Assembly: GCA_965216355.1 (NCBI GenBank) | Contig: CBDCFR010000012.1 | Coordinates: 1,017,065-1,081,064 of the forward strand | DNA from: Acidimicrobiales bacterium | GTDB lineage: Bacteria; Actinomycetota; Acidimicrobiia; Acidimicrobiales; SZUA-35 | DNA: 64,000 bases | Direction of reading: 5' to 3' | Shown here: one piece after another, positions 8,034-62,215 of the stretch | Position numbering within the stretch: position 1 is the stretch's first letter | How the letters are laid out: every line of letters starts with the position of its first letter | The notes under the pieces: generated by a model | The model's input: only the letters and a program-made list of their open reading frames with translations | The model's database searches: none | What the model was told of the DNA's origin: nothing | Translations under genes and position numbers: made by a program

Positions 8034-9443
8034 ATGTCTGTCGCCATGGGTAGTGAATCCGTTGAGCTATGTGATCTTCCGGCCACCAAGCAGGCGGCGA
8101 TTTTTCGCAACAAGGAAGCATCGGCCCGCGAATTGCTGGAGTCGCACCTCCGCCGGATCGAGCAGCGAAACCCCGAAATCAACGCCGTCGTGGCGCTCGA
8201 CGCCGACTTGGCCCAGGCCCGGGCGGCCGAGCTGGACGATGCGATCGCCGGTGGAGAGAGCCTCGGCGATCTCGCCGGCCTCGTCACGGCTCATAAAGAT
8301 CTTGCCGACACAGCGGACTTCCCCACCACCTACGGCTCAGCGGCCTTCGCCGATAACCGACCTACCAAAGATTCGCTCCTCGTCGAACGGATGAAACAAG
8401 CAGGAACCATCGCCGTCGGCAAAACCAACGTGCCCGAGTTTGGCACCGGGTCCCACACGTTCAATCCGGTCTACGGCACCACGGTCAACCCGTACGACTC
8501 ATCCCGATCGGCCGGCGGCTCCTCGGGTGGCGCCGCAGCGGCGTTGGCAACCGGGATGGTGGCGGTCGCCGATGGCAGCGACTTCGGGGGCTCGCTTCGC
8601 AACCCGGCGGCCTGGAACAACGTCGTCGGCTTCCGTCCCTCCATGGGTGTCGTCCCCACAGGCGGCGCCGGAAACGCATGGCATCCGATGCCGATCCACG
8701 GCCCGATGGCTCGCAACATCGACGACCTCGTGCTCCTACTCGGAGTGATGGCAGGAAGCGACAGCCGCGATCCCATCGGCTGGGGCCACGACCGGATTCC
8801 GCCCGCCATCGGCCCAGAGCCCAAGCCGCTCCGTGTGGCGTGGAGCAAGGACCTCGGCGGCTTGCCGTTTGACGGCGAGGTCACCGCAGCACTGGCCGGG
8901 CTGCCAGCGCTAATGGAAGGCATGGGCTGGACGGTCACCGAAGACGAGCCGAGCTTCGAGAGCGTCGACGAAACCTTCATCACCCTGCGAGCCTTCTCCT
9001 ACACCGGGCACGCCGACCGGCTACGGCCCCACTACGACGTGGTAAAGGCCACGGTGCAAGACGAGATCGAGCGCGGGCTCCAGTTATCGGCCCACGACGT
9101 GGCCAAGGCATTCGCCCAGCTCAACGTGCTGTGGCAGCGAGGCCACGCCTTCTTCGAGAACTACGACCTGCTCGTGGCCCCGGTCACCCAGGTGATGCCG
9201 TTCCCGGCCGATCAGGAATACCCATCCGAGGTCGGAGGGCGACCGTTGAAGACGTACATCGAGTGGATGATGTCATGTTGTCGGATCACCGCCTTCGGGC
9301 TGCCCGCGTTGTCGTTGCCGGCCGGGTTCTCCAACGGACTTCCCGTGGGTGTGCAACTCATCGGGCGGCCGCATGGCGACGTCGACCTGCTGCGTGCGGC
9401 CAAGGCCCTGGAAAGCGCGATTAGCATCGGAGGTGATGGCTAG
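8034..9443 (+). CDS. Amidase-signature family amidase
   Basis: Amidase signature GGSSGGAAAALATGMVAVADGSDFGGSLRNPA, with upstream K in TAHKDL. The ORF-track start at 7905 overlaps the HNH gene. The in-frame ATG at 8034 (MSVAMGSES) lies 4 nt after the HNH stop. Confidence 0.9.
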   Translation: MSVAMGSESVELCDLPATKQAAIFRNKEASARELLESHLRRIEQRNPEINAVVALDADLAQARAAELDDAIAGGESLGDLAGLVTAHKDLADTADFPTTYGSAAFADNRPTKDSLLVERMKQAGTIAVGKTNVPEFGTGSHTFNPVYGTTVNPYDSSRSAGGSSGGAAAALATGMVAVADGSDFGGSLRNPAAWNNVVGFRPSMGVVPTGGAGNAWHPMPIHGPMARNIDDLVLLLGVMAGSDSRDPIGWGHDRIPPAIGPEPKPLRVAWSKDLGGLPFDGEVTAALAGLPALMEGMGWTVTEDEPSFESVDETFITLRAFSYTGHADRLRPHYDVVKATVQDEIERGLQLSAHDVAKAFAQLNVLWQRGHAFFENYDLLVAPVTQVMPFPADQEYPSEVGGRPLKTYIEWMMSCCRITAFGLPALSLPAGFSNGLPVGVQLIGRPHGDVDLLRAAKALESAISIGGDG

Positions 9444-10356
9444 CGGCGACCTTCGAGTATGTGATCTGACCACCGGGTTCACCGGGCCGTCAGCCACGCG
9501 CTGGCTGGCCGCCTTCGGGGCGCAGGTGATCAAGGTCGAAGACATCCATACCCCCGACGTCACCCGGGGCACGATGGATTTCATCAACCTGAACGTAGGC
9601 AAGCTGAGCCTGGCGGTCGACCTGAACCGGAGCGGCGGTCGGAAGATCGTCACGCAACTCGCGGAGATCAGCGACGTAATCTGCGTCGACTATCCCGGCC
9701 TGGGATCCATCGGCATCGACATCAACCGTTTCGAGAGCGAACCACTACTGGTCGCCGGCCCTGAACACGACGGACAAGACCCGATGCAATGGCTCGAACT
9801 GACCGCGGCGGTATTGCACAGCCTCCTCGATCGCCAAGACAGCACCATCCTCACGCCCGACTATCAGGCACCAGCGCAAGAGAAAGCTGAAGACGTTTAC
9901 ACCTGCCAAGACGGACACGTAGCCATCGACTGCCGAGACGACGGTGACTGGGCCGCCCTGGCTGTCGCCCTCGACTTCGATGTGGAGGCGGCGTCAAAGG
10001 GAGAGGCGGCGCTGTCCGCCAAAGACATCGCCACCTGGTGCCGAAAGCGAAGCCGCTGGGAAGTCGAAACCGAGCTTCGCAGCGTTGGCGTACCGGTAGC
10101 GGCGTTGCGCAGCCCGGCCGAGCGCATCGACGCCGACATCGCCACCGGAGCTCGACACCTGTGGCCGATGGTCGACCACCCCGAGCTCGGGGGCATCAGA
10201 GTCGAAGGCGTGCCGGTCGAGATGTCCAAGACGCCGGGCTCAATTACCGAGCCGGCCCCACTCCTCGGCCAAGACAATCACTGGGTTCTGTCCAGCCTTC
10301 TGGGCAAAACCGAGTCCGAGATCGACCGGCTGGTTCGGATTGGAGTCGTCGGATGA
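9436..10356 (+). CDS. Family III CoA-transferase-like protein (CaiB/BaiF family, divergent middle region)
   Basis: The N-terminus LRVCDLTTGFTGPSATRWLAAFGAQVIKVE matches the family III Rossmann-like start, and the C-terminal ..GQDNHWVLSSLLGKTESEIDRLVRIGVV is a typical tail. ATG 9436 overlaps the amidase stop (ATGGCTAG). Confidence 0.7.
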   Translation: MASGDLRVCDLTTGFTGPSATRWLAAFGAQVIKVEDIHTPDVTRGTMDFINLNVGKLSLAVDLNRSGGRKIVTQLAEISDVICVDYPGLGSIGIDINRFESEPLLVAGPEHDGQDPMQWLELTAAVLHSLLDRQDSTILTPDYQAPAQEKAEDVYTCQDGHVAIDCRDDGDWAALAVALDFDVEAASKGEAALSAKDIATWCRKRSRWEVETELRSVGVPVAALRSPAERIDADIATGARHLWPMVDHPELGGIRVEGVPVEMSKTPGSITEPAPLLGQDNHWVLSSLLGKTESEIDRLVRIGVVG

Positions 10357-10946
10357 ATGGTGGCGTGATCGCCGACCTCACCGTGATCGAAGTCAGCGGA
10401 CCGGCCACCACCCGAGTAGGACGAATGCTGGCCGACTCCGGCGCCCACGTGATCCTGGTCGAACCCGACGAACTATCGACCGGCGCCGGGCGCCAAGACT
10501 TTCGGAAGCTAATCGAGGAAGCCGACATCCTCCTAGAAGGAGAACCTCCGGGAAGGCTGACCGAACTCGGCCTCGACTACACCGATCTCACCGGGAGCCA
10601 TGATCGCCCCGGCCCTCCCCCGATCAACGAACAACTCATCCACGTGTCGATCACCCCGTTCGGTCGCACCAGCAAGGGGCCGATGTCAACGACCAGCCGC
10701 CAACAGCCAATGACCGACCTCACGATCAAGGCTCGGGCCGGTTGGCTGGGCGACGACGGCCCACCCAGCGCCGGCGATCCAACCGCCATCGCCTGCCAAG
10801 TAGCGATGCTGGCGATACTCAAAGCACTCCTGGACCGAGAGCAAGTTGGCGGGCAGTTCATCGACGTTTCGATCGTGGCCGCCGCCAACGTCTGCGCCGC
10901 CAACATTGAATGGCTGAGCGGTCCGCACGTTACCATTCCTGCATGA
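10353..10946 (+). CDS. Family III CoA-transferase N-terminal-half protein (197 aa, truncated relative to the family)
   Basis: DLTVIEVSGPATTRVGRMLADSGAHVILVEP, followed by MTDLTIKARAGW, which matches the conserved YD...QA.SG segment carrying the catalytic Asp. Its start forms an ATGA overlap with the previous gene, and its stop overlaps the next gene's ATG. Confidence 0.65.
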   Translation: MNGGVIADLTVIEVSGPATTRVGRMLADSGAHVILVEPDELSTGAGRQDFRKLIEEADILLEGEPPGRLTELGLDYTDLTGSHDRPGPPPINEQLIHVSITPFGRTSKGPMSTTSRQQPMTDLTIKARAGWLGDDGPPSAGDPTAIACQVAMLAILKALLDREQVGGQFIDVSIVAAANVCAANIEWLSGPHVTIPA

Positions 10947-13246: not shown

Positions 13247-16200
13247 TCAGCCGTTCCAGGTTCCCTGCGACGACACCCGGCCCTGCAGCTCGGGCGGTGG
13301 GAAGGCACCCGGCGGATCCACGTCTTCAGTAGGTAGCGCGGCGCCGGGGCAAGCACCGATGGCGTCACCGGAAGCCGTACGTTCCCAACAGGCCGATAGG
13401 GAGTTGTCGGTACCTTCAACCAGCGAGATCGACTGGCCTGGCGCTGCACCGGCCAGTCGGGCCTCGGCCGACGGGTCCCAGATACCAAGAGCAGCCGGCG
13501 GTCGGCCGGCGATGTGGGCGTTGCCGGTGCCGTCGTCCCAGGCCACGAACGCCACCAGCAAACCGTCGGCGTCCCAGAACCAAAGGTCATCGCCACTGTT
13601 TTCGAGTGCCTCCCAGTTTGAGTTCGGCCCAGGAGGGAAGCCATAGTCGACGCCACGGAACCAGAGTGCATAGGGGATCGCCGGCCGCAGCGAACCGTCC
13701 TGCAGGAAATACTGCGTCCAGGATGGGCGGCGAATCGGGGCGGTGATGAACTGACCGGGACTGAACAGCGTCGGTTGCGTGAACGCCTGATTGATTCGCC
13801 CGGTATGTTCAGGCAGGTAGGGCGGAACACCAGTGTGGAAGGCGAAGTCGGTCTGCACCGAGGGATCCGGCGTGTCGGTGAGATAGAAGTTCTCGATGTC
13901 GAACGCCGCCGCGCCCACGTTGGAGAACTCGATGAACTCGTCCATCAGGTACGCAGCAAACGGTGCTGCCGTATCGTATGGATCTGATTCGGCGTATAAC
14001 ACCTCGGAGATCACGATGTTGCCGGCGTGGGGCGATAGGCCGATCGGGTCGATGGTCAACGTGAACGTGGTCGTTGTTGCTGCGCCCTGATCGTCGGTTA
14101 CCTGGACGAGGATGGGCCATACGGTGTCGAGTTCGGCCAACACCGGTGTGCCACTCAGCGTGGCCGTCCCGGCAAGGAAGTCGACATCGAGCGTCATGGA
14201 TCCCGGGAATATCCCGGCGGTCACGTCGACGACAAAGCCATCGACGTCGGAGAACGGGAACGTCATGGTAAAGGGAACGTTGACGTAGGCGGTTTGGTCG
14301 GGAATCGGGGACAGGATCGGCGGGTCGTTCGTCGGGTTGACCGTGACGTTGATGGTGCCGGTGGCCGTGTTGCCGGCGGTGTCGGATATCACGTACACGA
14401 TTGTGTCGGAGGTGGTTTCGCTACCGTCGTGAGTGTAGGTGGCCGTCGTGCCGTCGGTGGTGGTGGAAATCGAGTTCGCGCCCGGGTCGGAGATCAGCGT
14501 GATCGTCAAGGCGTCACCTTCAGGATCGGTGTGCAGCGCTGTCAGGTCGGCCGACGTGATCGATCCCCCCTCGTCGACGGTCAACGACGACGTGGCCGGC
14601 GCCGGAGCCTCGTTCACGTCGTTGACGTTGATCGTGATCGTTTCCGTGACGATGTGCACGCCGTCGGAGACCTCAACGGTCAACGTGTAGGTCGACGCGG
14701 CCTCAAAGTCGAGCGGCCCGGTAGTGGTGATCTCGCCGGTTGTCGGAGCGACGGTGAACTCGCCCAATGGATCGCCGGCAGTGACTGTGTACGACAGCGG
14801 TTGGCCCTCAGGGTCGGACGCCGTCACGAACACCACCGACTGACCGGCGACAAGACCTTCATCGACGGCGCCCGTGCTCGGAGAGGTAATCGGCGGATCG
14901 TTCACCGGGGTTACCGTGACGTTAATCGTTCCAACTGCGATGTTCCCGGCGATATCCGAGATCTCGTACGTGACCGTGTCCGTAGAGGTTTCGGAACCGT
15001 CGTGGGTGTAGGTGACCGTGGTGCCGTCGGTGGTGGCTGAGGTCGAGTTGGCGCCGGCCGACGTGATCGACGTGACCGTAAGGGCATCACCCTCGGGGTC
15101 GGTGTGCAACACGGTTAGATCGGCCGACGTGATCGATCCGCCCTCCGCCACCGCCAACGACGACGTGGCGGGGGCCGGCGCCTCGTTGGCGTCGAGTACT
15201 GAAATCGACACCGTCTGCGAAACCGTGTCCACCCCGTCGGAAACCGCAACGGTCAGGGTGTACGACGAGGTCACCTCAAAATCGAGTGGCGCCGTGGTGG
15301 TCACCTCACCCGTCGTGGCATCAATGGTGAACTCACCCAGCGGATCACCACCGGTGATCGCAAACGTCGGCGCACCACCATCAACATCGGTGACCGCCAC
15401 CGTGCCGATCACCTGACCGGCGGGCAAGTTCTCGGTCACCGAACCCGATAGCGGAGACACCACCGGTGGATCATTCACCGGCGTCACCGTCACATTGATC
15501 GTGCCGACCGCAGTGTTGCCGGCGGTGTCGGTGATGTTGTAGGTGACGGTGTCTGCGCTGGTCTCCGAACCATCGTGGCTATAGGTAACCGTGGCACCGT
15601 CGGTCGTCGTCGACACCGAGTTTGCACCGGGGCCGGTCACCAAGGTCACCGTAAGCGCGTCCCCTTCAGGGTCGGTGTGCAGCGCCGTGAGATCAGCGGA
15701 CGTGGCCGACCCACCCTCGGCCACCGTCAATGATGACGACGCCGGAGCCGGAGCCTCGTTGACATCAAGAACCGTGACGGTGACCGTCTCACCAACCGTG
15801 TTCACACCATCGGACACCTCAACCGTCAGCGTGTAGGTCGGCGTTGCCTCAAAATCAAGCGGCGCGGCGGTGGTGATCTCACCAGTCGTAGGAGCGACAT
15901 TGAACTCACCGAGAGGATCACCACCGGTGATCGCGAAAGACAGCGGCTGGCCCTCAGGATCAGACGCCGCCACAAACACAACCGACTGACCGGCAAGCAG
16001 ATTCTCATCAACCGAGCCTGCGACGGGCGACGTCAACGGCGGGTCGTTCACCGGAGTCACGACCACATTGATGGTGCCCACCGATGTGTTCCCCGCAATG
16101 TCGGAGATCTCATAGGTGACGGTGTCCGACGTCGTCTCGGTACCGTCGTGGGTGTAGGTGACAGTCGTGCCATCGGTAGTAGCGGAGAGCGAGTTGGCAC

Positions 16201-19200
16201 CGGCAGCCGTAACCGACGTGATCGTCAGCACGTCACCTTCCGGGTCGGAATGCAACACCGTCAGATCGGCCGACGTTATAGATCCGCCCTCCGCCACCGT
16301 CAACGACGACGTAGCCGGTCCCGGAGCCTCATTAGCGTCGACTACCGAGACCGACACCGTCTGCGAAACCGTGTCCACTCCATCAGAAACCGAGACGGTC
16401 AGGGTGTACGACGGCGTGGCTTCGAAATCGAGTGGCGCCGTGGTGGTCACCTCGCCTGTCGCCGCATCAATGGTGAACTCACCCAGCGGATCACCACCGG
16501 TGATCGCAAACGTCGGCGCACCACCGTCAACGTCCGACACCGCAACGGTGCCGACAACCTCACCGGCAGGCAGGTTCTCACCAACCGAGCCCGACAACGG
16601 CGACACCACCGGCGGATCGTTCACCGGCGTCACCGTCACATTGATCGTCCCGGTGGCACTATTCCCGGCGGTGTCGGTGATCACGTAGGAAAGCGAGTCG
16701 GATACCGTCTCCGAACCATCGTGGGTGTAGGTGACCGTGCTGCCGTCGGTTGTCGTCGATGCCGAGTTCACACCGACAAAGGAGATCGAGCTGACCGTCA
16801 GGGGATCTCCCTCCGGGTCGGTGTGGAGCGCAGTGAGATCGGCCGATGTGACCGAACCGCCCTCGGCCACCGTCAACGATGACGTGGCCGCAGCGGGAGG
16901 ATCGTTGACATCCAAAACGGTGACGGTAACCGTGTCGGTCACGACGTTCACGCCGTCGGAGATCTCAATTGTTAGCACGTACGACGGTGTGGTCTCGAAG
17001 TCCAACGCCGAAGCGGTTGTTATCTCACCGGCAGCACCCGTGACGGCCAACTGAGCGCCGAGCAGACCTCCAGGACCGGGTACGATGCTGAACTCACCGC
17101 CGGGGTCACCTCCCACGATCGAGAACGACAACGGCTGATCTTCAGGATCGGTGGCCGGCACCACTGTAACCGCGGCGCCGACGGTGTTCTCGGCAACCGT
17201 GGCGGAAATCGGAGTGGTGATCGGTGGATCGTTCACGGGGGTGACCGTGACGGCGATCGAGCCGATGGCCACGTTGCCTGCGCTGTCGGTGATCTCGTAC
17301 GAAATCGAATCGGAGGCGGTTTCCGAGCCGTCGTGCACGTAGGTTATCGCCGAGCCGTCGGTGGTAACCGAGGCCGAGTTGACGCCGGGGAACCGAACCG
17401 ACGAAACGGTGAGCGCATCCCCCTCAGGGTCGGTGTGCAATGCGGTGAGATCGGCCGATGTTATGGAGCCGCCCTCGGCCACGGTGAGCCTCGATGAGGC
17501 GGCTGATGGCGCTTCGTTGACGTCGGCGACCGTGATCGTCACCGTTTGGGACACGGTGTTGACACCGTCGAATACCTCGACGGTCAGGGTGTAGGTCGGG
17601 GTGGTCTCGAAGTCGAGAGGTCGGGTGATGGATATCACGCCCGTGCTGGGATCGATGGTGAAATCACCGCCAGGATCCCCGCCGACGATGGTGAACACCG
17701 GCGCCCCACCGTCGATGTCGGACACGGCCACCGCTCCAACGTCGGCACCGGCCGGCTGGGCCTCATCGGCGAGGCCGGTGAACACCGACAGCACAGGAGG
17801 GTCGTTGATCGGAGTGACGTCGACGGTGGCGGTGGCCGTCGATGTTGCGCCTCGGTCGTCGGTGACCACGTAGGTGAAGGTGTCGGTGCCCGAAAAGTTG
17901 GGAGCTGGGGTGTAGATGATCGTTGTGCGGTCGGCGCTGACCGTCACCGACCCGTTGGTCGGAGCCGATGCCGACGTGATGGTGAAACCGTCGCCGTCGG
18001 GGTCGCTGTCATTGGCCATGGCCCACAGGATCACGGCGGTGTCCTCGGCGGTGGCGATGAAATCGTTGGCCGCTACAGGCCTCAGGTTCCCAACCGTGGT
18101 TGGTGCCGCGGTAGTGGGAGCCACCGTCGTAGTCGTTGTTGTCGTAGTTGTGGTTGGCGGCTGAGTTGTTGTTGTCGTCACCACCACCGTTGTGGTCGTC
18201 GTTGTTGTAGAGGTTGTCGACTGGACCGGAATCGGCTCAGAAGTCACGGGCGTGGCGTCTTCGATGACGATCTCCGGAGTCTCGTCGACAAAGGCGAGAT
18301 CGGGGCTGGGCATGTTGTCATAACCGGCGAAGATTCCGGTGAACGACGCCACCACCGCCGACGTGACCGCAACCGCAGGACCCACGACCGGAGACGGAAC
18401 CGATCCGACGGAACCCGCCAACCAGGCCAGCGGTCCGGCAACCAGGCGAAGCTTTCCGATTCCGATCTGCAGGAAGGCCCTCACCACAGTCGGATCGAAT
18501 TGCGTACCGGCCCCGCGGGCAAGCTCCTGGCGCGCCAGTTCCGCCGACTTGGCCTTCTTATAACTCCGGATGCTGGTCATCACGTCGTAGGCGTCAGCCA
18601 CGGCCGCAATTCGACCGGCCAGCGTGATCTCCTCCCCAGCCCGGTTGTAGGGATAGCCCTTGCCATCCCAACGGCAGTGGTGTTCGTCGACTGCGCCGAG
18701 CCAATCCCCCAGCCACGGTCGGAGCGGTTCGACGTAGCCGTTGCCGGCGGCCGGATGGGTCTGAAGGATGGCCCACTCCTCATCGTTTGGCCGCTCCGGC
18801 TTGTTGAGGATCTCCGCCGGCACATCGAGCTTGCCCATGTCGTGGAGGAGTGCGCCCCACCGGAGGCGAACCCGGTCGTCGTCAGGGAGCTCAAGCTCCT
18901 CGGCAATCAGATCGCAGTAGGCCTGGACTCTTTCGGCGTGACCACGAGTTAGCCGATCATGATCACTCAGCGCATTGACGAGCAGGAGCAGGATCTCGGA
19001 GTGTTTGATCTCGTCGCTCCACTCCCCGCTCTGCCGTGCATCCTCGAGTCGTTGCAACGCCTTGCGACTGTTGGTGGATCGGAGCGACGTCTTGAACCGG
19101 CTGGGAGCCTGATCGGGAAAGATCAACGACAGCCGAAACAATGTGGCAATGGGCAGGTACCGGGTAAGAAATCGATCGGCCAACAGCAGATAGGTGTTGG

Positions 19201-19396
19201 CGACGGTGAACACCGAAATCCACCAGAGGATGGGGTTCATACCAAGACGCCAGGGCGGTGCGGTCCGGGAAATGAAATAGGCCAGGGCAAACGCGCTGAC
19301 TACCGGGGCCAGCAGCAGGAAAATGCGGATGGCAAAAGCGAGACGAGGCCGCGCCGGCCACTCGTTCTCGTTGATTGTTTGTGTAGGGCCGCCCAC
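13247..19396 (-). CDS. Giant membrane-anchored HD-GYP domain / cadherin-repeat / lamin-tail-domain protein (2049 aa)
   Basis: GTG start. Two N-terminal TM helices are followed by HD-GYP motifs (LLHDMGK at ~18835-18850, HHCRWDGKGYP at 18651-18686). Then come hydrophobic segment(s), a Thr-rich linker (~18090-18225), about 14 cadherin/Ig-like domains (DVDGGAP, LDFE, DVNEAP/VNDPP boundaries) and a C-terminal LTD-like motif ISEVLY...DEFIEFSNVGAAAFDIENFYLTD. Confidence 0.9.
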   Translation of the reverse strand: MGGPTQTINENEWPARPRLAFAIRIFLLLAPVVSAFALAYFISRTAPPWRLGMNPILWWISVFTVANTYLLLADRFLTRYLPIATLFRLSLIFPDQAPSRFKTSLRSTNSRKALQRLEDARQSGEWSDEIKHSEILLLLVNALSDHDRLTRGHAERVQAYCDLIAEELELPDDDRVRLRWGALLHDMGKLDVPAEILNKPERPNDEEWAILQTHPAAGNGYVEPLRPWLGDWLGAVDEHHCRWDGKGYPYNRAGEEITLAGRIAAVADAYDVMTSIRSYKKAKSAELARQELARGAGTQFDPTVVRAFLQIGIGKLRLVAGPLAWLAGSVGSVPSPVVGPAVAVTSAVVASFTGIFAGYDNMPSPDLAFVDETPEIVIEDATPVTSEPIPVQSTTSTTTTTTTVVVTTTTTQPPTTTTTTTTTTVAPTTAAPTTVGNLRPVAANDFIATAEDTAVILWAMANDSDPDGDGFTITSASAPTNGSVTVSADRTTIIYTPAPNFSGTDTFTYVVTDDRGATSTATATVDVTPINDPPVLSVFTGLADEAQPAGADVGAVAVSDIDGGAPVFTIVGGDPGGDFTIDPSTGVISITRPLDFETTPTYTLTVEVFDGVNTVSQTVTITVADVNEAPSAASSRLTVAEGGSITSADLTALHTDPEGDALTVSSVRFPGVNSASVTTDGSAITYVHDGSETASDSISYEITDSAGNVAIGSIAVTVTPVNDPPITTPISATVAENTVGAAVTVVPATDPEDQPLSFSIVGGDPGGEFSIVPGPGGLLGAQLAVTGAAGEITTASALDFETTPSYVLTIEISDGVNVVTDTVTVTVLDVNDPPAAATSSLTVAEGGSVTSADLTALHTDPEGDPLTVSSISFVGVNSASTTTDGSTVTYTHDGSETVSDSLSYVITDTAGNSATGTINVTVTPVNDPPVVSPLSGSVGENLPAGEVVGTVAVSDVDGGAPTFAITGGDPLGEFTIDAATGEVTTTAPLDFEATPSYTLTVSVSDGVDTVSQTVSVSVVDANEAPGPATSSLTVAEGGSITSADLTVLHSDPEGDVLTITSVTAAGANSLSATTDGTTVTYTHDGTETTSDTVTYEISDIAGNTSVGTINVVVTPVNDPPLTSPVAGSVDENLLAGQSVVFVAASDPEGQPLSFAITGGDPLGEFNVAPTTGEITTAAPLDFEATPTYTLTVEVSDGVNTVGETVTVTVLDVNEAPAPASSSLTVAEGGSATSADLTALHTDPEGDALTVTLVTGPGANSVSTTTDGATVTYSHDGSETSADTVTYNITDTAGNTAVGTINVTVTPVNDPPVVSPLSGSVTENLPAGQVIGTVAVTDVDGGAPTFAITGGDPLGEFTIDATTGEVTTTAPLDFEVTSSYTLTVAVSDGVDTVSQTVSISVLDANEAPAPATSSLAVAEGGSITSADLTVLHTDPEGDALTVTSITSAGANSTSATTDGTTVTYTHDGSETSTDTVTYEISDIAGNIAVGTINVTVTPVNDPPITSPSTGAVDEGLVAGQSVVFVTASDPEGQPLSYTVTAGDPLGEFTVAPTTGEITTTGPLDFEAASTYTLTVEVSDGVHIVTETITINVNDVNEAPAPATSSLTVDEGGSITSADLTALHTDPEGDALTITLISDPGANSISTTTDGTTATYTHDGSETTSDTIVYVISDTAGNTATGTINVTVNPTNDPPILSPIPDQTAYVNVPFTMTFPFSDVDGFVVDVTAGIFPGSMTLDVDFLAGTATLSGTPVLAELDTVWPILVQVTDDQGAATTTTFTLTIDPIGLSPHAGNIVISEVLYAESDPYDTAAPFAAYLMDEFIEFSNVGAAAFDIENFYLTDTPDPSVQTDFAFHTGVPPYLPEHTGRINQAFTQPTLFSPGQFITAPIRRPSWTQYFLQDGSLRPAIPYALWFRGVDYGFPPGPNSNWEALENSGDDLWFWDADGLLVAFVAWDDGTGNAHIAGRPPAALGIWDPSAEARLAGAAPGQSISLVEGTDNSLSACWERTASGDAIGACPGAALPTEDVDPPGAFPPPELQGRVSSQGTWNG
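14320..18090 (-). repeat. Intragenic tandem domain array: six ~570-610 bp two-domain units, equal to three ~1.15-1.2 kb four-domain super-repeats, plus one leading domain
   Basis: PVNDPP-type boundaries (ggcggatcgttcaccgg variants on the + strand) occur at ~17807, 17222, 16611, 16040, 15470, 14895 and 14320. Alternate units are very similar at the protein level, for example VVSPLSGSVGENLPAGEVVGTVAVSDVDGGAPTFAITGGDPLGEF versus VVSPLSGSVTENLPAGQVIGTVAVTDVDGGAPTFAITGGDPLGEF. Confidence 0.9.
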
Positions 19397-19496
19397 AGCG
19401 TCTTTTTTCGGCAGATTTGGAGCCGAGTGAAGAAACGATTCTTCGGTACAAAGAAGGCGCTCTATCTTCCTGGTTTAGGGCTATAGGTCGAATGGC

Positions 19497-20663
19497 CTAG
19501 GCATCAGACGCAGCGACCGGTTGCTCGATCCGGATCCAGTCCACCTGCAGCCGCACTTCGCCGGTCAGAACAGGTTGTTGACCGGGAAGGTCCGGGCTGT
19601 CGGACCCGTCGAGCTGAATGGCAAGATCAAGCCCTCCGTGTGGGATGTGGCTCACGTCTTCGGAGAGAATCACCGGCGATCCGCCATCAATCGAAACGGC
19701 GACGTATTCGTCGGTCCACAACATCTCATAGACATGCCATTCGGCGGCCGATACGTCGGCACCGGCTTCGCTGTGACTCATCGACGTCGATCCGTGACCG
19801 TCGGCGTCGACCCAGTGCAGGTCGGACCACACCGGACTGCGGTCATCCCGGTCGAGGCGGGTGGACATGATGTTGATCTCGCCCCCGGCCGGCCAGTTGT
19901 TGTCGACGGGCCATAGGTGGATTACGCCGGCCGTTACCTGATCGGCGTCGACATCGACCCTGGCCCGGAACGTGATCTTTCCTCCGGTGACGGTGTGGCC
20001 GGCGAGCTTCATTCCCCCAGATACGAGATGTCCGGCCTCGACTCCACTTCCCATCCTGGCCGTGATCTCAAGCACGTGATCACCGGCAGCACCAGCGGCA
20101 CCGTCGGCGGGCACCACGGCCACCGCCGAAGGCCGTCGCAATCCCCAACCCTCGTGGCCGACGCCGTTGTACACGATCCAATCCCCGGGAACGAGTTCAC
20201 CGGCCCGGAAGTCCTGGTAGTACGTCGTCTCCAGCGCTGGTACGTGAACAGTCGAGCTTGTCTTCTCACGAGTGGTGGTCGGCGAGCCGTCATTATCCGT
20301 GGTCGTCGTTGCCAGATCATCGGTGGTGGTCGGCCCCGTGGGGTCCGACTCGTCCAATGTCGTATCGGGAACGGTGGTGGTGGTCGTCGTGGTGGTCGTA
20401 GTCGTGGTGGTGGTTGTCGGCCGCAGCATGTTGCCACCGCCTTCGAGTCGCGGGGTGGCGTCGAGATCGGCGAAGGCCAACTGATCGGGAGCATCCCCGC
20501 CAGTCGGCTGCTCGCCGTCGACGGTTTCAACCCGGGTGCCGTCGGCCAATTGGGTCGAGCCGCTGGCCCGATCCCAGAGCATCACAACACTGACCACGAG
20601 GCCCGCCAACACCCAGAGCGCTAGTTGCCATCGCCGAACCATGCCTGAACCATCGGCAGCCAC
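19497..20663 (-). CDS. Secreted GH16/concanavalin-like jelly-roll protein with Thr-rich linker and degenerate catalytic motif
   Basis: Signal/TM segment MVRRWQLALWVLAGLVVSVVMLW and a poly-Thr linker. GH16-like blocks: GGKITFRARV, GVIHLWP, WPAGGEINIMST (in place of GEIDI.E) and EWHVYEMLWTDEYVAVSIDGG. Confidence 0.7.
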   Translation of the reverse strand: MAADGSGMVRRWQLALWVLAGLVVSVVMLWDRASGSTQLADGTRVETVDGEQPTGGDAPDQLAFADLDATPRLEGGGNMLRPTTTTTTTTTTTTTTTVPDTTLDESDPTGPTTTDDLATTTTDNDGSPTTTREKTSSTVHVPALETTYYQDFRAGELVPGDWIVYNGVGHEGWGLRRPSAVAVVPADGAAGAAGDHVLEITARMGSGVEAGHLVSGGMKLAGHTVTGGKITFRARVDVDADQVTAGVIHLWPVDNNWPAGGEINIMSTRLDRDDRSPVWSDLHWVDADGHGSTSMSHSEAGADVSAAEWHVYEMLWTDEYVAVSIDGGSPVILSEDVSHIPHGGLDLAIQLDGSDSPDLPGQQPVLTGEVRLQVDWIRIEQPVAASDA

Positions 20664-20752
20664 TTGAGCGTTCTTAGGCTTTATGACCTATGTCGAAGTG
20701 ACCGAATCATTCTTTGCCTTCCGCTAACCCGCAGGCCCGCTACGCTCAGGCC

Positions 20753-22054
20753 ATGGCCAGTACGCTCGGAGAGGGAGCGCGCAACCGGCTCGCCGCTTTG
20801 TGGGATTCAACCCCCACAGCAAAAATCGTCGGTCCGCTGTTCACCATTGCCATTGTCGCGGTCTTGGCCATGCTCGTTATGAACCGGCCCGACACCACGG
20901 TGGCCACCGGCCCGGCCGACAACGGGTCGGAGGTCGACAGTCCCGTCACCGCTCCAGCCCCTATCGAAGAGGAGCCGGAGTCGGTTGAGGATTCGAACCC
21001 GTTTCTGATCGTCGGAAACGAGATCGTCGACCCCGACGGCAACATCTTCGTGCCCCGCGGCGTTAACGGCGCCATCAAGATCACCGAGTTCCCGTACGTC
21101 TTCGAGGGTGGTAACGGCGGGCTCAACGGCCGTGTCGACTCGATCCTGGCCTGGGGTTGGAATACCGTGCGAGCCACTCTCAACTGTTACGGCACCGATG
21201 GTCAGCCCACCAGTCAGGACGTTATCGACGGCATCGCCGCCACCGTCGACGAGCTGACCCAGGCTCGCATCGTGGTGATCCTGGCCTGCCACGACGCCAC
21301 CGGATCGAATCTTGAGCTGGAGAGCGAGACCGAAATCAACGTCCGCCGGTTCTGGGATCAGATCGTCACCCGCTACAAGAACAATCCGTACGTCTGGTTC
21401 AACTTCTACAACGAACCTCAGGCCGTGTTCGACGGCGAGGCGTGGCTTGATCTCCACCGCTTTTACTACGACCGCTACCGCACTCAAGGCGTCGAGAACG
21501 TCATGGTGTTCGACCTCCCGATTTACGGGCAGGCCATCAACCTTCTCGCCGAGGATGAGGTTTTCGACGAGATGGGCGGCTGCAATGTGCTATTCGGGTG
21601 GCACGCTTGGGGTGCGTTGGACGGCCGTCAAGCCACCGATGACGAATACCTTGAGTACGCCCAAGCCGTGATCGACCGAGGTTTGGCCGTGGCCATCACC
21701 GAGGCCGGTGTGCCCCAGCCGCTGACCGCCGGCACCGCCGGCAACCCGGAATGGAACGAAAGCGGCTACTACGCCGCTCTCAAGGTGACGAAATCCTGGC
21801 CGATCGGATTGCTATGGTGGCACGGCACCGGCGACAACTCCAATGAGTTGTTCTATCCCCTCAAGACCGACAAAACGGGCTTCTGGACTGCCAACAACTC
21901 CGGAGCGTTGACCAGAGCCGGCGCCACATTCTGGGAATTCAGTCAGCGGGAGCGTGCGGTTGAAAAGTTCAGCGGAGAGGTCACCGACAGCGCTTGCCCG
22001 TCGTCGTTCGAGGTCGAGTATCCCGTCGACAACGACGACACCCTCGACGGGTAA
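20753..22054 (+). CDS. Glycoside hydrolase family 5 (cellulase/mannanase-type), membrane-anchored or secreted
   Basis: N-terminal TM IVGPLFTIAIVAVLAMLVM. The acid/base motif is WFNFYNEPQ (NEP) and the nucleophile motif is AVAITEAGV. The ORF opens at TTG 20714; the ATG at 20753 is used here, and the start is uncertain. Confidence 0.75.
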   Translation: MASTLGEGARNRLAALWDSTPTAKIVGPLFTIAIVAVLAMLVMNRPDTTVATGPADNGSEVDSPVTAPAPIEEEPESVEDSNPFLIVGNEIVDPDGNIFVPRGVNGAIKITEFPYVFEGGNGGLNGRVDSILAWGWNTVRATLNCYGTDGQPTSQDVIDGIAATVDELTQARIVVILACHDATGSNLELESETEINVRRFWDQIVTRYKNNPYVWFNFYNEPQAVFDGEAWLDLHRFYYDRYRTQGVENVMVFDLPIYGQAINLLAEDEVFDEMGGCNVLFGWHAWGALDGRQATDDEYLEYAQAVIDRGLAVAITEAGVPQPLTAGTAGNPEWNESGYYAALKVTKSWPIGLLWWHGTGDNSNELFYPLKTDKTGFWTANNSGALTRAGATFWEFSQRERAVEKFSGEVTDSACPSSFEVEYPVDNDDTLDG

Positions 22055-29240: not shown

Positions 29241-32200
29241 TCAGCATGGCAGCCGGACCACCTCGGTGCGGCGGGCCGGGGTGCGGGGGCCGGGGAGGAT
29301 GACGCCGGTGAGGTTGAGTGGGTCGGAGCCGGTGACTTCGACGTATCCCTTTCCGCCGGAGGCCTTCGATGCTCTGGTGCGGGTGATCTTGATCGCTTCG
29401 GCCGCTTCGGGGAGGACGAACTGTTCGCCACTGAAGCCGTTGACAAACCGACCGCCCTTCACCAGACCCCGATCTTCGAACCGACGCAGCGCCCACTGCA
29501 GATCACGCCAAGGCACAGCGAGCCCACCACGGGTGTTTTCGTAGGCCACAAGGTCGTAGAACAACACGCCCCATCGCTGGAGAAGCTGGTCGGCCAGAGC
29601 TTCGACCATGTCGTCGCGCTCGGCCGGATCGAGGTTGGTGGCCGGCGGAACGAGTGACCACCGACCGGCCCCCGACGCCCGACCTCCGCCCTGCCTAAGC
29701 CGTGAAAGAGAACGCATCCGCCGAGCCTCACGCCGCTGTTCCGCCGGCGGGGCCATCAGTGTGCGCACCGCCTCAAAACCGTCGGCCGTGAACAGCCCGA
29801 GCGCCACCCCCTCCCACAGCGCACCTTCGATGTCGGACGCCAGGCGCCCGGTATCAGCGGTCAACTCGGTGAGGAATCGGGGGCCGTGTTCGGTGAGCAC
29901 CTCGGCGATCTCGGCCACCGCTCCCATGGCCGGTGTGGCGGCCGTAGTCGACCCTCGATGGGCGGCCAGCAGCCATGGCAAGTCGTCGCGGAACAGCAGG
30001 CTGATCGGCGTGACCTTCGACAGTGATCCGCGACCGGATCCCGACCGGCCACGAGCGTTGCCGTCTTCTCGAATCACTCTGGGGCTTAGCCGCAGCCATT
30101 GCAGGTGGCCGTCGTGGCAAAGCTGATCGATCCACGGCCGCTGGTAACCCTTGATCCGAGTGGACAGAATCTCGGGTTCCCACGACGCAGCCGCCGCCTC
30201 CCAACCCTGTAGCTGGCCGAGCACCTTCTGCAACCCGGCGGGGCCGACGGCTTGGGTGCCGGGAGCAACGTGTTGCCAACGGGTGAGGAACTTGATGAAC
30301 AGCTCGGGACTGATCGGCTCGACCGCCCGCCGTCGGGTCTTGCGGGACCGGGCATGCATCCGGGCCAGCAGGCGGCGGGAACACCACTCAACGGGTGAGG
30401 ATGTGCCCGCCACCTGCTCTGCTGTTTGGTTTGTTCGTATGGCATTGGGTTTGGTGAACGAACCTTGGATGGCCGAGCCTTCAGCTTCCAGAGCGAGCAG
30501 CCCCACTGTGAGGAGCGTTTCGCTCAGTCCGGTGATGGATTCCAGCTGTGAAACCGTGACCGGAGAGTGCAGCTCCAGATAGCCCCGCAGCATCGTAGTT
30601 GCCACGTGCTCCGGGAACGTGTCTTTGCTCGCAATCCCTGTCAGCAACACCTCGACGTCGGCTGCCGCCTCGGCGGCATGCCATTGCTCGAACTCATCGA
30701 TTCGACGAACAGCTCTCCCCCGCTTGATCAGGTCCTCCATCAGCGACCCCCATCGAGCCCGTTCATCGTTACCGACCCGCAACAGCACCACATCTCGGAG
30801 CAGATCGTGCAGCTCATCGGCGGTGCGAGGATTGGGAGCCAGTTCGGCTCGTACTTCGGCAATCGCCTCAGGTACCAGGGTGGCGATGTCGGCGGGGTTG
30901 ACGGGCAGCCCCCGGCGCAACGGCGCAGCGTGAGTGCGACGCTCGGGCAGTTCACCGTCGTCGAGGAACGCATAGGGGCGGGCGGTGAGAATCTCGTGGG
31001 CGAGCATCGACGGTTCGGTGGTGTCGACACAGTGCATGGTCACGTCACCCCGCCCCAGCGCTGCCCACAGCTCGATCAGGCCGTCGACGTCCATCCCCTC
31101 GGTCAACGTGTCGTGAACGGTTTGCCGCACCAGCGGGTGGTTGGGTATCTCGGCCGGGCCGCTGACGTTCTCCTGGCAGGCGGCGGCATCGGGAAACAGG
31201 GCCGCCAGCAGATCGTCGGACTCCATGCGCTGAATCGGCGGCGGGTTTCGTTTGCCGTTGCGCATTCGGAGCACGATCAACGCCCGGTTGAGATTCCATC
31301 GCCACCGTGACTGGAACGCCGGTTGATCGAGCACTGCCTGGCTCAGCGTCTCCTTGATGATGTCGGGCTTGAGAAAATGCTGCACGTCGGTGAGCGGAAA
31401 CGAGTGGTGGGGCCCAAGGGAGATGACCACCGCATCATCGGAGGCCGCGGCCTGCAGCTCAAAGTTGAACCCCACACAGAACTTCTTGCGCAGCGCATAG
31501 CCCATGGCTCGGTTGATTCGCCCGCCGAGCGGTGAGTGGATCACGAGCTGCATCCCGTCGGCGTCGTCGAAGAAACGCTCCATCACCAGGTTGGTACCGG
31601 TGGGGATGAGCCCAAGGGCCGAGCGGGCGGTGGCGAGGTAGGCCACGATCAGTGCGGCGGCATCTCGGGGAATGCCCGACTCGGCAATCAACCAGTCGAC
31701 CGCTCCGGTGGCCTGATCATCGGCGAGCATCTGATCGACCGAACCCCGCAGCCTTGACACCTCCGCCGACAACTCAGCGGTGCGGGCCGGGGCCTCTCCC
31801 GTCCAGAACGGCACCGTCGGCGGGGCGTCACCAGCGTCTAGTACCCGAACCTGGCCACCCGTAACCTGACGGATCTTCCACGAGTGGGTGCCGAGCAGGA
31901 AGATGTCGCCGGCCATCGATTCCATGGCCCAGTCTTCGTTGACGGTGCCGATGAATAACTCGTCAGGTTCGGCAATCACCCGCATGTCGTAGATGTCGGG
32001 GATGGCGCCGCCGGAGCTGAGGGCCACGTAGCGGGCACCACGACGGCCTCGAAGCTCGGCGTTGACCTCATCGTGATGCACCCAGGCCGCTCGGCGGCCG
32101 CGACCAGTCATCACGCCTTCGCTCACCAGTTTGATGACCTCGTCGAAGGTCTCCCGATCGACATCGGCGAATGGTGACGCTCGGCGCACCAAATCGAAGA

Positions 32201-33641
32201 GCCCGTCGACCTTCCACTCCTCGGCTCCGGTTTCGGCCACGATCTGTTGGGCCAAGATGTCGAGCGGCGCCACCGGCGGATGGAGCACGTCGAGCCTTCC
32301 GGCCCGTACCGCCATCATCAACGCCGTGCATTCGATCAGCTCATCCCGAGTGAGCGGATAGAGACGACCACGGGGGGTGCCGTGGCGAGTGTGATTCGAC
32401 CGCCCCACCCGCTGCAGAAACGTGGCGATCGAGCGGGGTGACCCGATTTGGCAGACCAGCTCCACCGGCCCGACGTCGATCCCCAACTCCAACGACGCCG
32501 TGGCCACCAACGCCTTCAGCTCACCGGCCCGAAGCTTCCGCTCCACCCGATGACGGCGATCCTTCGACAGACTTCCATGGTGGGCGGCCACCAGATCCTG
32601 GGGGTCGACGTCGGCTTCCCCCTCGGTTTCGGCTCGCTCGGCCAACAGCTCACCAAGCTGATGGGCCAGGCGCTCGGCCAATCGACGAGTGTTCACAAAC
32701 ACCAGGGTGGTGCGATGTTCGGCCACGAGATCAGCGATCTGTTCGAGCACGTCGTCCATCTGGGCGTGGGAGGCGACGGCTTCGAGCTCGATGTCGGGTA
32801 GCTCAATCTGGAGATCGAGGGCACGCTGATGGCCGGTGTCGACCACCGAACAGTTGATGGCCCCATCCTCGGAAACGCGGGTGCCGACAAGTAGCCGAGC
32901 CACGGTCTCTATCGGACGCTGCGTGGCCGATAGCCCCACCCGAACCGGCGGACGGCGACAGACGTGGGCCAAGCGCTCCATGGTGAGTGCCAGGTGGGAG
33001 CCGCGTTTGTCGCGGGCCATGGCGTGGATCTCATCGACGATGATCGTGTCGACCGTGCGCAACGTCTCCCGGCTCTTCCCGGCCGTCACCAATAGATACA
33101 GCGACTCGGGCGTGGTGATCACAAACGTGCGAGGTTTGCGCACCATCGACTGCCGTTCGCTCTGCGGAGTGTCGCCGGTGCGCACCCCCATCGTGATTTC
33201 GGGCGCCGACAATCCCATCCGCTTCGCCACCTCGGCGATCTCGACCAGGGGACGTTCGAGATTCTCGGCGATGTCGACCGCCAGCGCCTTGAGCGGCGAA
33301 ACATACACCACCTGGGTGCCGTCGACCGGCAGACCGGAAGCGTGCTGAAGGTAGAGCCGGTTAATGCTCATCAAGAACCCGGCGAGGGTCTTACCCGAAC
33401 CGGTGGGGGCGGCAATCAGCGTGTGACGCCGAGCTGCGATGTGGGGCCAACCCTCGATCTGCGGAGGTGTTGGGCCAGACTCAAACCGCTCCTCAAACCA
33501 ACGGGCAACCGCCGGGTGGAAATCAACTCCCGGCACCAGATCGCTGCGGACGCCAACCGAGCGATCGACCGTCTCGACAAACCCGTGATCGAGCGCGCCA
33601 AAACTCAGCTGCTCAAGTGGGGAAGGCTCAAGGAGGGCCAC
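29241..33641 (-). CDS. lhr: Lhr-type large ATP-dependent DNA/RNA helicase
   Basis: 1466 aa. Motif I APTGSGKTL, motif II VDEIH, and later helicase motifs (VATASLELGID, QRVGRSNH). The long C-terminal extension is typical of Lhr. Confidence 0.9.
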   Translation of the reverse strand: MALLEPSPLEQLSFGALDHGFVETVDRSVGVRSDLVPGVDFHPAVARWFEERFESGPTPPQIEGWPHIAARRHTLIAAPTGSGKTLAGFLMSINRLYLQHASGLPVDGTQVVYVSPLKALAVDIAENLERPLVEIAEVAKRMGLSAPEITMGVRTGDTPQSERQSMVRKPRTFVITTPESLYLLVTAGKSRETLRTVDTIIVDEIHAMARDKRGSHLALTMERLAHVCRRPPVRVGLSATQRPIETVARLLVGTRVSEDGAINCSVVDTGHQRALDLQIELPDIELEAVASHAQMDDVLEQIADLVAEHRTTLVFVNTRRLAERLAHQLGELLAERAETEGEADVDPQDLVAAHHGSLSKDRRHRVERKLRAGELKALVATASLELGIDVGPVELVCQIGSPRSIATFLQRVGRSNHTRHGTPRGRLYPLTRDELIECTALMMAVRAGRLDVLHPPVAPLDILAQQIVAETGAEEWKVDGLFDLVRRASPFADVDRETFDEVIKLVSEGVMTGRGRRAAWVHHDEVNAELRGRRGARYVALSSGGAIPDIYDMRVIAEPDELFIGTVNEDWAMESMAGDIFLLGTHSWKIRQVTGGQVRVLDAGDAPPTVPFWTGEAPARTAELSAEVSRLRGSVDQMLADDQATGAVDWLIAESGIPRDAAALIVAYLATARSALGLIPTGTNLVMERFFDDADGMQLVIHSPLGGRINRAMGYALRKKFCVGFNFELQAAASDDAVVISLGPHHSFPLTDVQHFLKPDIIKETLSQAVLDQPAFQSRWRWNLNRALIVLRMRNGKRNPPPIQRMESDDLLAALFPDAAACQENVSGPAEIPNHPLVRQTVHDTLTEGMDVDGLIELWAALGRGDVTMHCVDTTEPSMLAHEILTARPYAFLDDGELPERRTHAAPLRRGLPVNPADIATLVPEAIAEVRAELAPNPRTADELHDLLRDVVLLRVGNDERARWGSLMEDLIKRGRAVRRIDEFEQWHAAEAAADVEVLLTGIASKDTFPEHVATTMLRGYLELHSPVTVSQLESITGLSETLLTVGLLALEAEGSAIQGSFTKPNAIRTNQTAEQVAGTSSPVEWCSRRLLARMHARSRKTRRRAVEPISPELFIKFLTRWQHVAPGTQAVGPAGLQKVLGQLQGWEAAAASWEPEILSTRIKGYQRPWIDQLCHDGHLQWLRLSPRVIREDGNARGRSGSGRGSLSKVTPISLLFRDDLPWLLAAHRGSTTAATPAMGAVAEIAEVLTEHGPRFLTELTADTGRLASDIEGALWEGVALGLFTADGFEAVRTLMAPPAEQRREARRMRSLSRLRQGGGRASGAGRWSLVPPATNLDPAERDDMVEALADQLLQRWGVLFYDLVAYENTRGGLAVPWRDLQWALRRFEDRGLVKGGRFVNGFSGEQFVLPEAAEAIKITRTRASKASGGKGYVEVTGSDPLNLTGVILPGPRTPARRTEVVRLPC

Positions 33642-62032: not shown

Positions 62033-62215
62033 CGGAATCCCTCTGTGGTGGTTGCGGGGGCGATATGTCGGCCAACACCTTAATTGAAACGTCAAACAAC
62101 TACCAATTGATGCTGCAGGAAGGATCTATGAACAGACTCGCCAGACTCTAACCGCCATCCGTTCTTGCGGCTCAACCCCCCGAAATACCCGTTGAATCAC
62201 AACTACGATGGCGAT

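Follow-up and report, generated by a model that had tools for sequence, protein, structure and literature searches.

A 2,049-residue HD-GYP protein of an Acidimicrobiales bacterium with a C-terminal cadherin-repeat ectodomain, and the family to which it belongs

HD-GYP domains typically stand at the C-terminus of a protein, behind N-terminal sensors, and the inputs that reach them from the membrane are dCache, PBPb, CHASE2 and MASE9-12 modules; according to the census of Galperin and Chou, no HD-GYP type with an extracytoplasmic sensor has been characterised experimentally, and cadherin or C-terminal ectodomains are not mentioned there (10.1101/2021.11.05.467447). In Streptomyces, HdgA and HdgB are HD-GYP proteins with six transmembrane (TM) helices (PMC6205966). 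DvhD of Desulfovibrio vulgaris has the order dCache-TM-PAS-HD-GYP and a dead active site, and exerts inside-out control on an adhesin protease (PMC13090378). Here we describe a gene of an Acidimicrobiales bacterium, found in a stretch of 64,000 nucleotides of contig CBDCFR010000012.1 (assembly GCA_965216355.1; hereafter the window), whose product carries an HD-GYP domain near its N-terminus and a very large array of cadherin/Ig-like domains at its C-terminus.

An initial annotation of the window, made from the sequence, had proposed that a second-messenger domain and an adhesin-like array are joined in one polypeptide, with a cytoplasmic HD-GYP domain and the cadherins outside the cell, and our analysis supports this proposal. 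The fusion is real and less unique than was then held, because it is common in databases. We found no description of the arrangement (two TM helices, HD-GYP, one TM helix and a C-terminal ectodomain; 2TM-HD-GYP-TM) in literature searches or in the main HD-GYP census, and among publications naming both HD-GYP and cadherin no title or abstract opening tells of such a fusion.

The reading frame and its catalytic domain

The gene occupies positions 13247..19396 of the window on the minus strand, as do all of its parts given below, with a GTG start codon at 19396 and the stop at 13247-13249; its product is identical to library protein P0121. The open reading frame (ORF) is uninterrupted over 2,049 codons, as had been annotated. 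The GTG start is credible because the first residues of the protein (M-GGPTQ) agree with the N-terminal consensus of its relatives (MxxxGPTQ). The parts follow each other in the order two TM helices, HD-GYP domain, one TM helix, Thr-rich linker, 14 cadherin/Ig-like domains and divergent lamin-tail-like tip, and the motifs previously listed (HDRLTRGHAERV, LLHDMGK, HHCRWDGKGYP and AVADAYDVMTS) are all present in the protein. Promoter and terminator scans gave nothing over shuffle expectation.

The sequence is present in four metagenome runs, with a depth of 2-9x, and their Logan contigs were assembled separately for each run. Two single contigs, X1 (16496-19700) and X2 (16909-19667), which come from two runs of the same sample, span the junction between the HD-GYP part and the repeats and show zero differences over the HD-GYP domain, the third TM helix (TM3), the linker and the first cadherins; the suspicion of a chimera, raised with the initial annotation, was thus dispelled. 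One contig of a further run, X3, joins 15317 to 16464 and lacks 1,146 nt (382 codons), exactly one super-repeat of four domains, with 62 shared bases, and the skipped piece (15317-16464) is present in the same run as a separate contig. The skip reflects either an ambiguity of the assembly path or a variation in the copy number of stalk domains and, being in frame (382 residues, one super-repeat), it changes the copy number and not the fusion. Between repeat copies, pairwise alignment gives an identity of no more than 89% in protein and 85% in DNA. Moreover, the same layout is found in relatives of 1,393 to 2,576 residues from unrelated assemblies, one of which is a 1.35-Mb contig of a metagenome-assembled genome (MAG).

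The catalytic domain covers residues 139-304 (18485..18982). Pfam HD_5 matches exactly these residues (E 1.2e-29, 103.6 bits against a cut-off of 27.2) and Pfam HD matches at 5e-15, while homology in sequence to HD-GYP enzymes of known structure ranges from 4e-36 to 1e-23. The AlphaFold2 model reaches a pLDDT (predicted local confidence) above 90 over the domain and Foldseek relates it to PA4781, DvhD, PmGH and V-cGAP3 at E values of 1e-9 to 3e-4; profile and structure agree on the HD-GYP assignment made at first, the fold being that of the HD superfamily with the inserted GYP loop.

Eight metal ligands are listed for the enzyme PmGH, namely E185, H189, H221, D222, H250, H276, H277 and D305, and the Glu of the HHE motif is not among them (PMC4159591). 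In the alignment to the PmGH structure (4MCW), H189 corresponds to H153 of the window protein, the HD pair H221/D222 to H185/D186, H250 to H214, the HH pair H276/H277 to H239/H240 and D305 to D268. The catalytic pair (D183 and K225 in PmGH) is found as D147 and K189, and the residues that contact the guanine base in substrate binding (R314 and K317) as R277 and K280. These ligands, the Asp/Lys pair, the GYP motif and the R..K contacts are invariant or nearly so in 45 relatives and in 29 long relatives. The position of E185 is occupied by Leu149 and, in the family, its eight commonest residues (L, M, R, F, A, K, I and S) include neither E nor D. Because an acidic residue is lacking at this position, the family is placed in the binuclear HD-GYP subfamily, a group which usually stops at pGpG (10.1101/2021.11.05.467447). 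The trinuclear (E/D-T-G) subfamily, characterised by the acidic residue at the E185 position, was rejected for the window protein on account of Leu149.

The motif HHCRWDGKGYP (residues 239-249, 18650..18682) differs from the full signature HHExh(D/N)GxGYP by Cys241, which stands in place of the HHE Glu; it is a deviation from the signature and not evidence of inactivity. The initial annotation had supposed that HHC may alter a metal-ligand position and that the domain could be a sensor rather than an enzyme. The first supposition is contradicted, since the replaced Glu is no ligand (PMC4159591) and all seven binuclear ligands are present. The second is weakened: with the seven ligands, the catalytic Asp/Lys pair and GYP all intact, the residues of the domain indicate that it is probably an enzyme rather than a dead sensor.

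The Cys is a trait of the clade. Of 245 relatives carrying the motif, 206 have E at its third position, 22 have C, 12 L, 4 A and 1 M. Cys241 (18674-18676) is kept in the nearest relatives P0122, P0123 and P0125-P0127, and HHC is enriched in forms with a long ectodomain (14/60) compared with short forms (8/185). Standing beside the metal-binding His pair, the thiol might make the domain sensitive to redox conditions or to metals.

Membrane path and extracellular part

The whole protein was scanned for TM helices with an additive 19-residue insertion-energy scale, the numbers of which are approximate. Only three segments of TM grade were found, at residues 25-43, 55-73 and 341-359. The first (TM1, 19268..19324; 0.05 kcal/mol) lies within a helix modelled at residues 17-45 with a pLDDT above 90 and is conserved in the family; an Arg-rich N-terminal tail with an invariant Trp13 precedes it, and Pro31 is invariant within it. 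The second (TM2, 19178..19234) is likewise supported by the scan, the model and family conservation, and the short outside loop between the two helices carries the conserved pattern L-P-R-P-x-G. TM2 is followed by a cytoplasmic juxtamembrane segment (residues 74-107, 19076..19177), conserved in the family as DRxxRR and then LLPLAxLLxLSLVFPDxAPSRF, in which P82, P94, D95 and P98 are invariant and R100 is strongly conserved. Residues 1-140, which include this segment, have no Pfam match; we regard the segment as a candidate coupling element. A query with the N-terminal 134 residues alone, looking for the two-helix module with other outputs, retrieved only two short fragments.

Behind the catalytic core, the C-terminal HD-GYP helix of the model runs into an amphipathic GPLAWL segment (residues 302-329, 18410..18493) with conserved G321, P322 and W325. 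TM3 (18320..18376), found by the insertion-energy scan, is the sole membrane helix between the enzyme and the ectodomain, and a PxPxLAFxE motif is conserved just outside it. The complete model (pLDDT 80) contains helices 17-45 and 55-88, the HD-GYP domain, the long helix 302-329 and a low-confidence helix 343-360. The two N-terminal hydrophobic helices had been seen correctly from the outset; of the "one or two" further hydrophobic segments then suggested, one (341-359) is real and the other was discarded, as the GPLAWL segment (318-330) costs about +10 kcal/mol as a TM helix across 172 relatives. The number of TM helices between the HD-GYP domain and the repeats is consequently odd (one), as a cytoplasmic enzyme with outside repeats had been expected to have.

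Arg clusters occur family-wide ahead of TM1, behind TM2 (DRxxRR) and ahead of TM3. Because of these clusters, of the acidic and Lys-free ectodomain, of the even Cys counts and of the Ca2+-binding cadherin motifs, the protein fits a path that starts with the N-terminus inside and goes out, in and out again, which leaves the HD-GYP domain cytoplasmic and everything past residue 360 outside the cell.

The extracellular part begins with an acidic linker (residues 361-435, 18092..18316), which is rich in Thr (41%), in agreement with the first description. It continues with 14 cadherin/Ig-like domains of about 95 residues each (residues 436-1784, 14045..18091), a count that matches the "about 14" of the initial annotation and that was obtained by delimiting the units through pairwise alignment, as the 500-nt period limit of Tandem Repeats Finder misses the 1,146-nt super-repeat. 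Unit 1 is of the Big_9 type; units 2-13 alternate six times between cadherin and Big_9 and form three super-repeats of four domains (A1-B-A2-B, that is cadherin-Big_9-cadherin-Big_9) at 16619-17806, 15473-16618 and 14327-15472; unit 14 (14045-14326) is He_PIG-like, with a weak Pfam He_PIG match. Pfam recognises 12-13 stretches of Big_9/Cadherin_4 (Big_9, PF17963, at 371 bits) and six of Cadherin (PF00028, 286 bits against a cut-off of 28.8), and the NCBIfam tandem-95 repeat NF012211 matches 13 stretches (407.8 bits against a cut-off of 90). By their sequence, units 2, 4, 6, 8, 10 and 12 keep the presumed motifs for Ca2+ binding between domains, xEN/xEG, SDxDG or SDPEG, LDFE and D[VA]N[DE][AP]P. 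If each domain measures about 4.5 nm, the length of the rod would come to roughly 60 nm, which would exceed the Gram-positive wall.

The tip (residues 1785-2049, 13250..14044) appears by profile comparison to be a divergent lamin-tail-like beta-domain with a C-terminal extension. Its 265 residues have only four homologues, in which the Cys pair 2003/2016 and the terminal RVSSQG are conserved. The lamin-tail domain (LTD) is a weaker assignment than the initial annotation had made it: the Pfam LTD profile (PF00932) stays below threshold (22-28.5 bits against a cut-off of 34.3, over the first 60% of the profile only), but comparison of the tip profile with the above-threshold LTD of a relative (L004) gave an hhalign probability of 97%. 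The AlphaFold2 model of the tip (pLDDT 47.7) is too poor for use.

The ectodomain (residues 361-2049, 13250-18316) is acidic, and its 1,689 residues contain zero Lys, 15 Arg and 218 Asp+Glu, for a net charge of -203. The bias extends to relatives (0.6% Lys outside versus 2.8% in the cytoplasmic part), and other secreted proteins of the window are also Lys-poor, such as an RHS protein with 0.9%. Avoidance of proteases, Ca2+ binding and codon bias are possible causes. The number of Cys in the ectodomain is even in 199/210 relatives, which suggests disulfides.

The C-terminus has no LPXTG sorting signal, the only similar string being an internal LAVTG at residue 783, and no RTX, haemolysin-type or type-I secretion module was matched by Pfam in the protein. 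A sortase-anchored adhesin, or one exported by a type-I secretion system (T1SS; RTX/LapA-like), was ruled out on these two grounds.

The family and its gene neighbourhoods

At least 2,427 proteins came back from a search with the N-terminal 393 residues, and the top 120 were examined. All of these match below 1e-93 with 44-58% identity, they are typically 550-680 residues long and they come mostly from Acidimicrobiia and Ilumatobacteraceae MAGs; about 40 carry Big_9 or cadherin-like domains, 7 a C-type lectin and 7 pentapeptide repeats, as counted from the listing. A second search, an exhaustive phmmer run with the first 365 residues against 1.84 billion representatives (clusters at 50% identity), gave 5,588 matches at 1e-30 or better, a total which may include ordinary HD-GYP proteins. 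The best 150 of these 5,588 clusters all cover residues ~10-350, and their length reaches 1,000 residues or more in 61 cases, 1,500 or more in 28 and 2,000 or more in 8. The nearest relatives measure 2,024 (67% identity) and 1,742 residues (62%). Pfam found Big_9 in 28 of 29 long relatives, Cadherin_4 in 27, Cadherin in 18, LTD in 15, He_PIG in 8 and FG-GAP in 7.

The full core is present in genomes of the GTDB from Acidimicrobiia, Microthrix, Kineococcus, Cellulomonas, Acidothermaceae, a Mycobacteriales MAG, Thermoleophilia, Gaiellaceae, Egibacteraceae and Dormibacterota. The family is thus large, with thousands of sequences in Acidimicrobiia, other Actinomycetota and Dormibacterota. The 365-residue core is 44-67% identical in the family, and the ectodomains attached to it are built from Big_9/cadherin, LTD, FG-GAP, NHL, PKD, fn3, Big_13, C-type lectin, pentapeptide or CBM2 domains. 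For example, Big_9/cadherin domains are combined with FG-GAP in a relative of 1,393 residues (L001) and Big_9 with LTD, PKD and NHL in one of 1,819 (L004); Big_13 arrays are found in proteins of 1,302 and 1,108 residues (L003 and L038), fn3 in one of 871 (L008), pentapeptide repeats in two of 718 and 599 (L020 and L034), and a cellulose-binding CBM2 domain in one of 637 (L042, Acidothermaceae B102). Because the core is constant and the ectodomain variable, what the family conserves is the 2TM-HD-GYP-TM core, whereas the ectodomain is a module that can be exchanged.

These counts also bear on the initial annotation. It knew of no description of the architecture, and we found no paper on it, but it is common in sequence databases; the proviso made at the time, that it might already be common there, has turned out to be the case, with 61/150 best clusters of at least 1,000 residues and Big_9 in 28/29 long relatives.

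The CBM2 member (L042:7971-9881) lies around 3.46-3.48 Mb in the complete genome of Acidothermaceae bacterium B102 (AP028633.1), an organism taken as cultured, and its CBM2 ectodomain scores 60 bits. At L002:7956-12796 a family gene of 765 residues is overlapped at its end by a 1,045-residue ORF in another frame, rich in cadherin-like repeats; probably a frameshift error or a pseudogene has split a once longer protein. Three relatives with different ectodomains list one and the same longest contig of 4.37 Mb and are probably paralogues in one genome.

The neighbours of the gene in the window encode a Mo-hydroxylase subunit, a GH16-like protein, a GH5 enzyme and an M16 peptidase. No LapG/DvhG-type (BTLCP) protease and no T1SS gene was found among the seven flanking ORFs scanned against Pfam. 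Conserved partners were sought by tblastn of nine window neighbours against 80 loci and by clustering 347 flanking ORFs of 51 family loci, and nothing was shared beyond 7/51 (a generic ABC ATPase). A conserved operon partner was rejected on these results and, as no gene neighbour is conserved, the unit is self-contained. Some family loci contain GGDEF genes.

Directly upstream, on the same strand and after a gap of 100 bp, an ORF of 388 residues (19497-20663, minus strand) has a signal-anchor helix at its N-terminus, together with a poly-Thr linker and a GH16-like beta-jelly-roll that Pfam matches weakly (E 0.029); it is not conserved beside other family members. Its motif GEINIMS looks degenerate against what we take to be the GH16 consensus. 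A gene of the GH5 cellulase family (20714-22054, plus strand) is divergent from it. The GH5 neighbour and the CBM2 family member hint at a polysaccharide context, and this may be coincidence.

Farther away in the window, an RHS-repeat protein of 2,873 residues with PKD, DUF11 and DUF7507 domains (53474-62095, minus strand), followed by small ORFs on the same strand, is likely a polymorphic toxin or a surface protein. At 9349-10356 and 10038-10946 (plus strand), two ORFs of different frames overlap; both match the CoA-transferase family III profile, one in its C-terminal and the other in its N-terminal part, and either adjacent genes with wrongly placed starts or a frameshift could explain them. 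An Lhr-type large helicase of 1,466 residues (29241-33641, minus strand) and an SNF2/DUF3670 helicase of 990 residues (43766-46738, plus strand) are ordinary actinobacterial genes.

Possible function and comparison with known systems

The reading that we favour, with moderate confidence, is that of a receptor-type cyclic-dinucleotide phosphodiesterase in reversed order, with the catalytic domain first and the ectodomain at the C-terminus, which would signal from outside to inside. From a cytoplasmic N-terminus the chain would form the TM1/TM2 hairpin, and the conserved juxtamembrane segment would lead to the HD-GYP domain of the binuclear subfamily, whose last helix would return to the membrane; TM3 would then cross it and leave the remaining 1,689 residues outside, as a Thr-rich linker, a rod of 14 domains stiffened by Ca2+ and a lamin-tail-like tip. 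A surface, a polymer or a neighbouring cell might bind or pull the ectodomain, so that TM3 would shift relative to the hairpin, or dimerisation would change. The GPLAWL helix and the juxtamembrane segment would relay this change to HD-GYP activity and so to the local level of cyclic di-GMP (c-di-GMP). The data show the ORF, the domains, the intact catalytic residues, the number of TM helices and a family with modular ectodomains; which way the signal runs, what the ligand is and what the substrate is are what we infer.

Several observations weigh against this scheme. The direction is read from the architecture alone, and how a signal would travel along a flexible linker of 75 residues is physically unclear. 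The model has a pLDDT below 50 for TM3 and the linker and does not give the packing of the helices. With Cys in place of the HHE Glu, activity could be lowered or regulated. In the PDB the best sequence match is 5z7c, the cGAMP-specific V-cGAP3, and the substrate may thus be other than c-di-GMP. The 64-kb window contains no diguanylate cyclase gene. Finally, a query for RNA runs returned only the same four runs, of unrecorded library type, and no RNA runs were identified.

A different view, to which we give a minor share of belief, would make the protein an anchor or localiser: either a constitutive enzyme tethered to the wall, the matrix or the pole as a local sink of c-di-GMP, or an adhesin held in the membrane by an enzyme with three TM helices. 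The adhesin-like part would indeed need another anchor, as it has neither a C-terminal sortase motif nor a Pfam-detectable RTX/type-I secretion module, and a long flexible Thr-rich linker is a poor conductor of conformational signals. A passive anchor, however, has no need of the strong conservation seen in the elements that link membrane and catalytic domain (P82, P94, D95, P98 and R100; G321, P322 and W325), the two short outside segments are conserved too, and some ectodomains of the family are of a ligand-sensing type (CBM2, C-type lectin).

Control in the opposite direction, as in LapD and DvhD, with the HD-GYP domain acting mainly as a c-di-GMP sensor that sets the conformation, clustering or proteolytic release of the adhesin, seems to us quite improbable. 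It draws on DvhD, whose HD-GYP domain is a c-di-GMP-driven switch with stalk helices that splay on binding (PMC13090378) and which is among the best structural matches, on the non-canonical HHC motif of the clade of the window protein, and on PxPxLAFxE outside TM3, which could be a processing or contact site. DvhD, however, has lost its HD and HH ligands (to SQ and MN), whereas the window protein and the whole family keep all ligands and the catalytic pair; no protease of the LapG/DvhG type was found among the seven flanking ORFs scanned against Pfam, and an interchangeable ectodomain is easier to reconcile with an input module than with an output under regulation. For the same reason, a conserved core with a swapped ectodomain, the adhesin display of the LapD/LapG kind evoked in the initial annotation fits less well than a receptor. 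An assembly artefact, by which an HD-GYP gene and a repeat-protein gene would be joined as a chimera or a frameshift hidden, is effectively refuted: the source is metagenomic and of low depth (2-9x), contigs break at repeats and one X3 contig omits 1,146 nt, but two separately assembled contigs span the junction with zero differences, the skip keeps the frame open and affects only the number of super-repeats, and dozens of independent relatives, including the proteins of 2,024 and 1,742 residues (67% and 62% identity), share the layout.

Returning to the receptor reading, we offer as a speculation, one that we ourselves rather doubt, that the giant-stalk members are receptors of adhesion or contact, possibly of force, in which a Ca2+-rigid cadherin rod would carry a binding tip past the wall, and engagement with a surface, a polymer or a sister cell would directly switch the c-di-GMP phosphodiesterase of the same chain via one TM helix; the clade-specific Cys might then add redox control. 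If so, this would be the first coupling of attachment to second-messenger turnover without intermediaries. The way in which bacteria turn surface contact into a change of c-di-GMP is an open question of central importance. Nearly all work on it concerns proteobacteria with relays of several proteins, and this family offers a system of a single protein whose modular input can be read (cellulose-binding, lectin, cadherin and others). Some members occur in cultured strains (Kineococcus and, as we take it, Acidothermaceae B102), so the question is testable, and the CBM2 member is a natural case for a ligand-controlled HD-GYP enzyme.

Among enzymes of known structure, the binuclear PA4781 (4R8Z) and V-cGAP3 (5Z7C) have the same fold, their HD, HH, GYP, D/K and R..K residues are found in the window protein, and Leu149 is non-acidic as at their equivalent position, whereas the trinuclear PmGH (4MCW) has the acidic ligand E185 there. 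The known enzymes are soluble or bear N-terminal sensor or receiver domains, while the HD-GYP domain of the window protein lies between TM helices and is followed by 1,689 extracellular residues, and its motif has HHC in place of HHE. The dCache-, PBPb- and CHASE2-HD-GYP proteins likewise connect a domain outside the membrane with an HD-GYP domain inside the cell, and their predicted logic, control of c-di-GMP hydrolysis by an outside signal, is alike, but their sensor is N-terminal, between two TM helices, with HD-GYP at the C-terminus; in the window protein the order is reversed, one TM helix precedes the sensor, and the sensor or adhesion module consists of cadherin/Ig repeats instead of a small-ligand-binding fold. 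The MASE9-HD-GYP proteins of the HdgA type, with a MASE9 of six to eight TM helices before a C-terminal HD-GYP domain, differ in architecture and were rejected, as only two TM helices precede the domain here.

DvhD (9RBZ/9RC0), a close structural match to the domain, and the EAL protein LapD resemble the window protein in connecting c-di-GMP, through a protein of the membrane, with large repeat adhesins. DvhD, however, is catalytically dead (HD to SQ, HH to MN) and works with a separate protease and T1SS adhesins, whereas the window protein has an intact site and its adhesin-like part on the same chain. A system of the LapD/DvhD type was rejected on the intact catalytic residues, on the C-terminal position of the outside part after one TM helix and on the lack of a partner protease or T1SS gene among the flanking ORFs scanned.

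The same topology is known from the PknB-type Ser/Thr kinases, with PASTA domains, and from the RsgI anti-sigma factors, with carbohydrate-binding modules: a cytoplasmic effector at the N-terminus, one TM helix and an outside sensor at the C-terminus. As in the family of the window protein, a constant cytoplasmic module is joined to swappable ectodomains, some of them carbohydrate-binding, for which the CBM2 member is a parallel; their effector chemistry is different, they have no N-terminal TM hairpin and no homology exists beyond shared types of ectodomain. This topology, effector first and sensor last, extends to c-di-GMP enzymes, and domain surveys focused on N-terminal sensors missed it. 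A more distant likeness is offered by eukaryotic receptor-type protein tyrosine phosphatases and cadherins, where an adhesion-type ectodomain of tandem Ig or cadherin domains is followed by one TM helix and, in the phosphatases, an intracellular hydrolase that breaks down a signalling species. The analogy is functional only, as the catalytic domain is unrelated, the chain runs in the opposite direction and the proteins are not bacterial; if the giant-stalk members do sense contact, they would be a prokaryotic counterpart of these receptor-type phosphatases.

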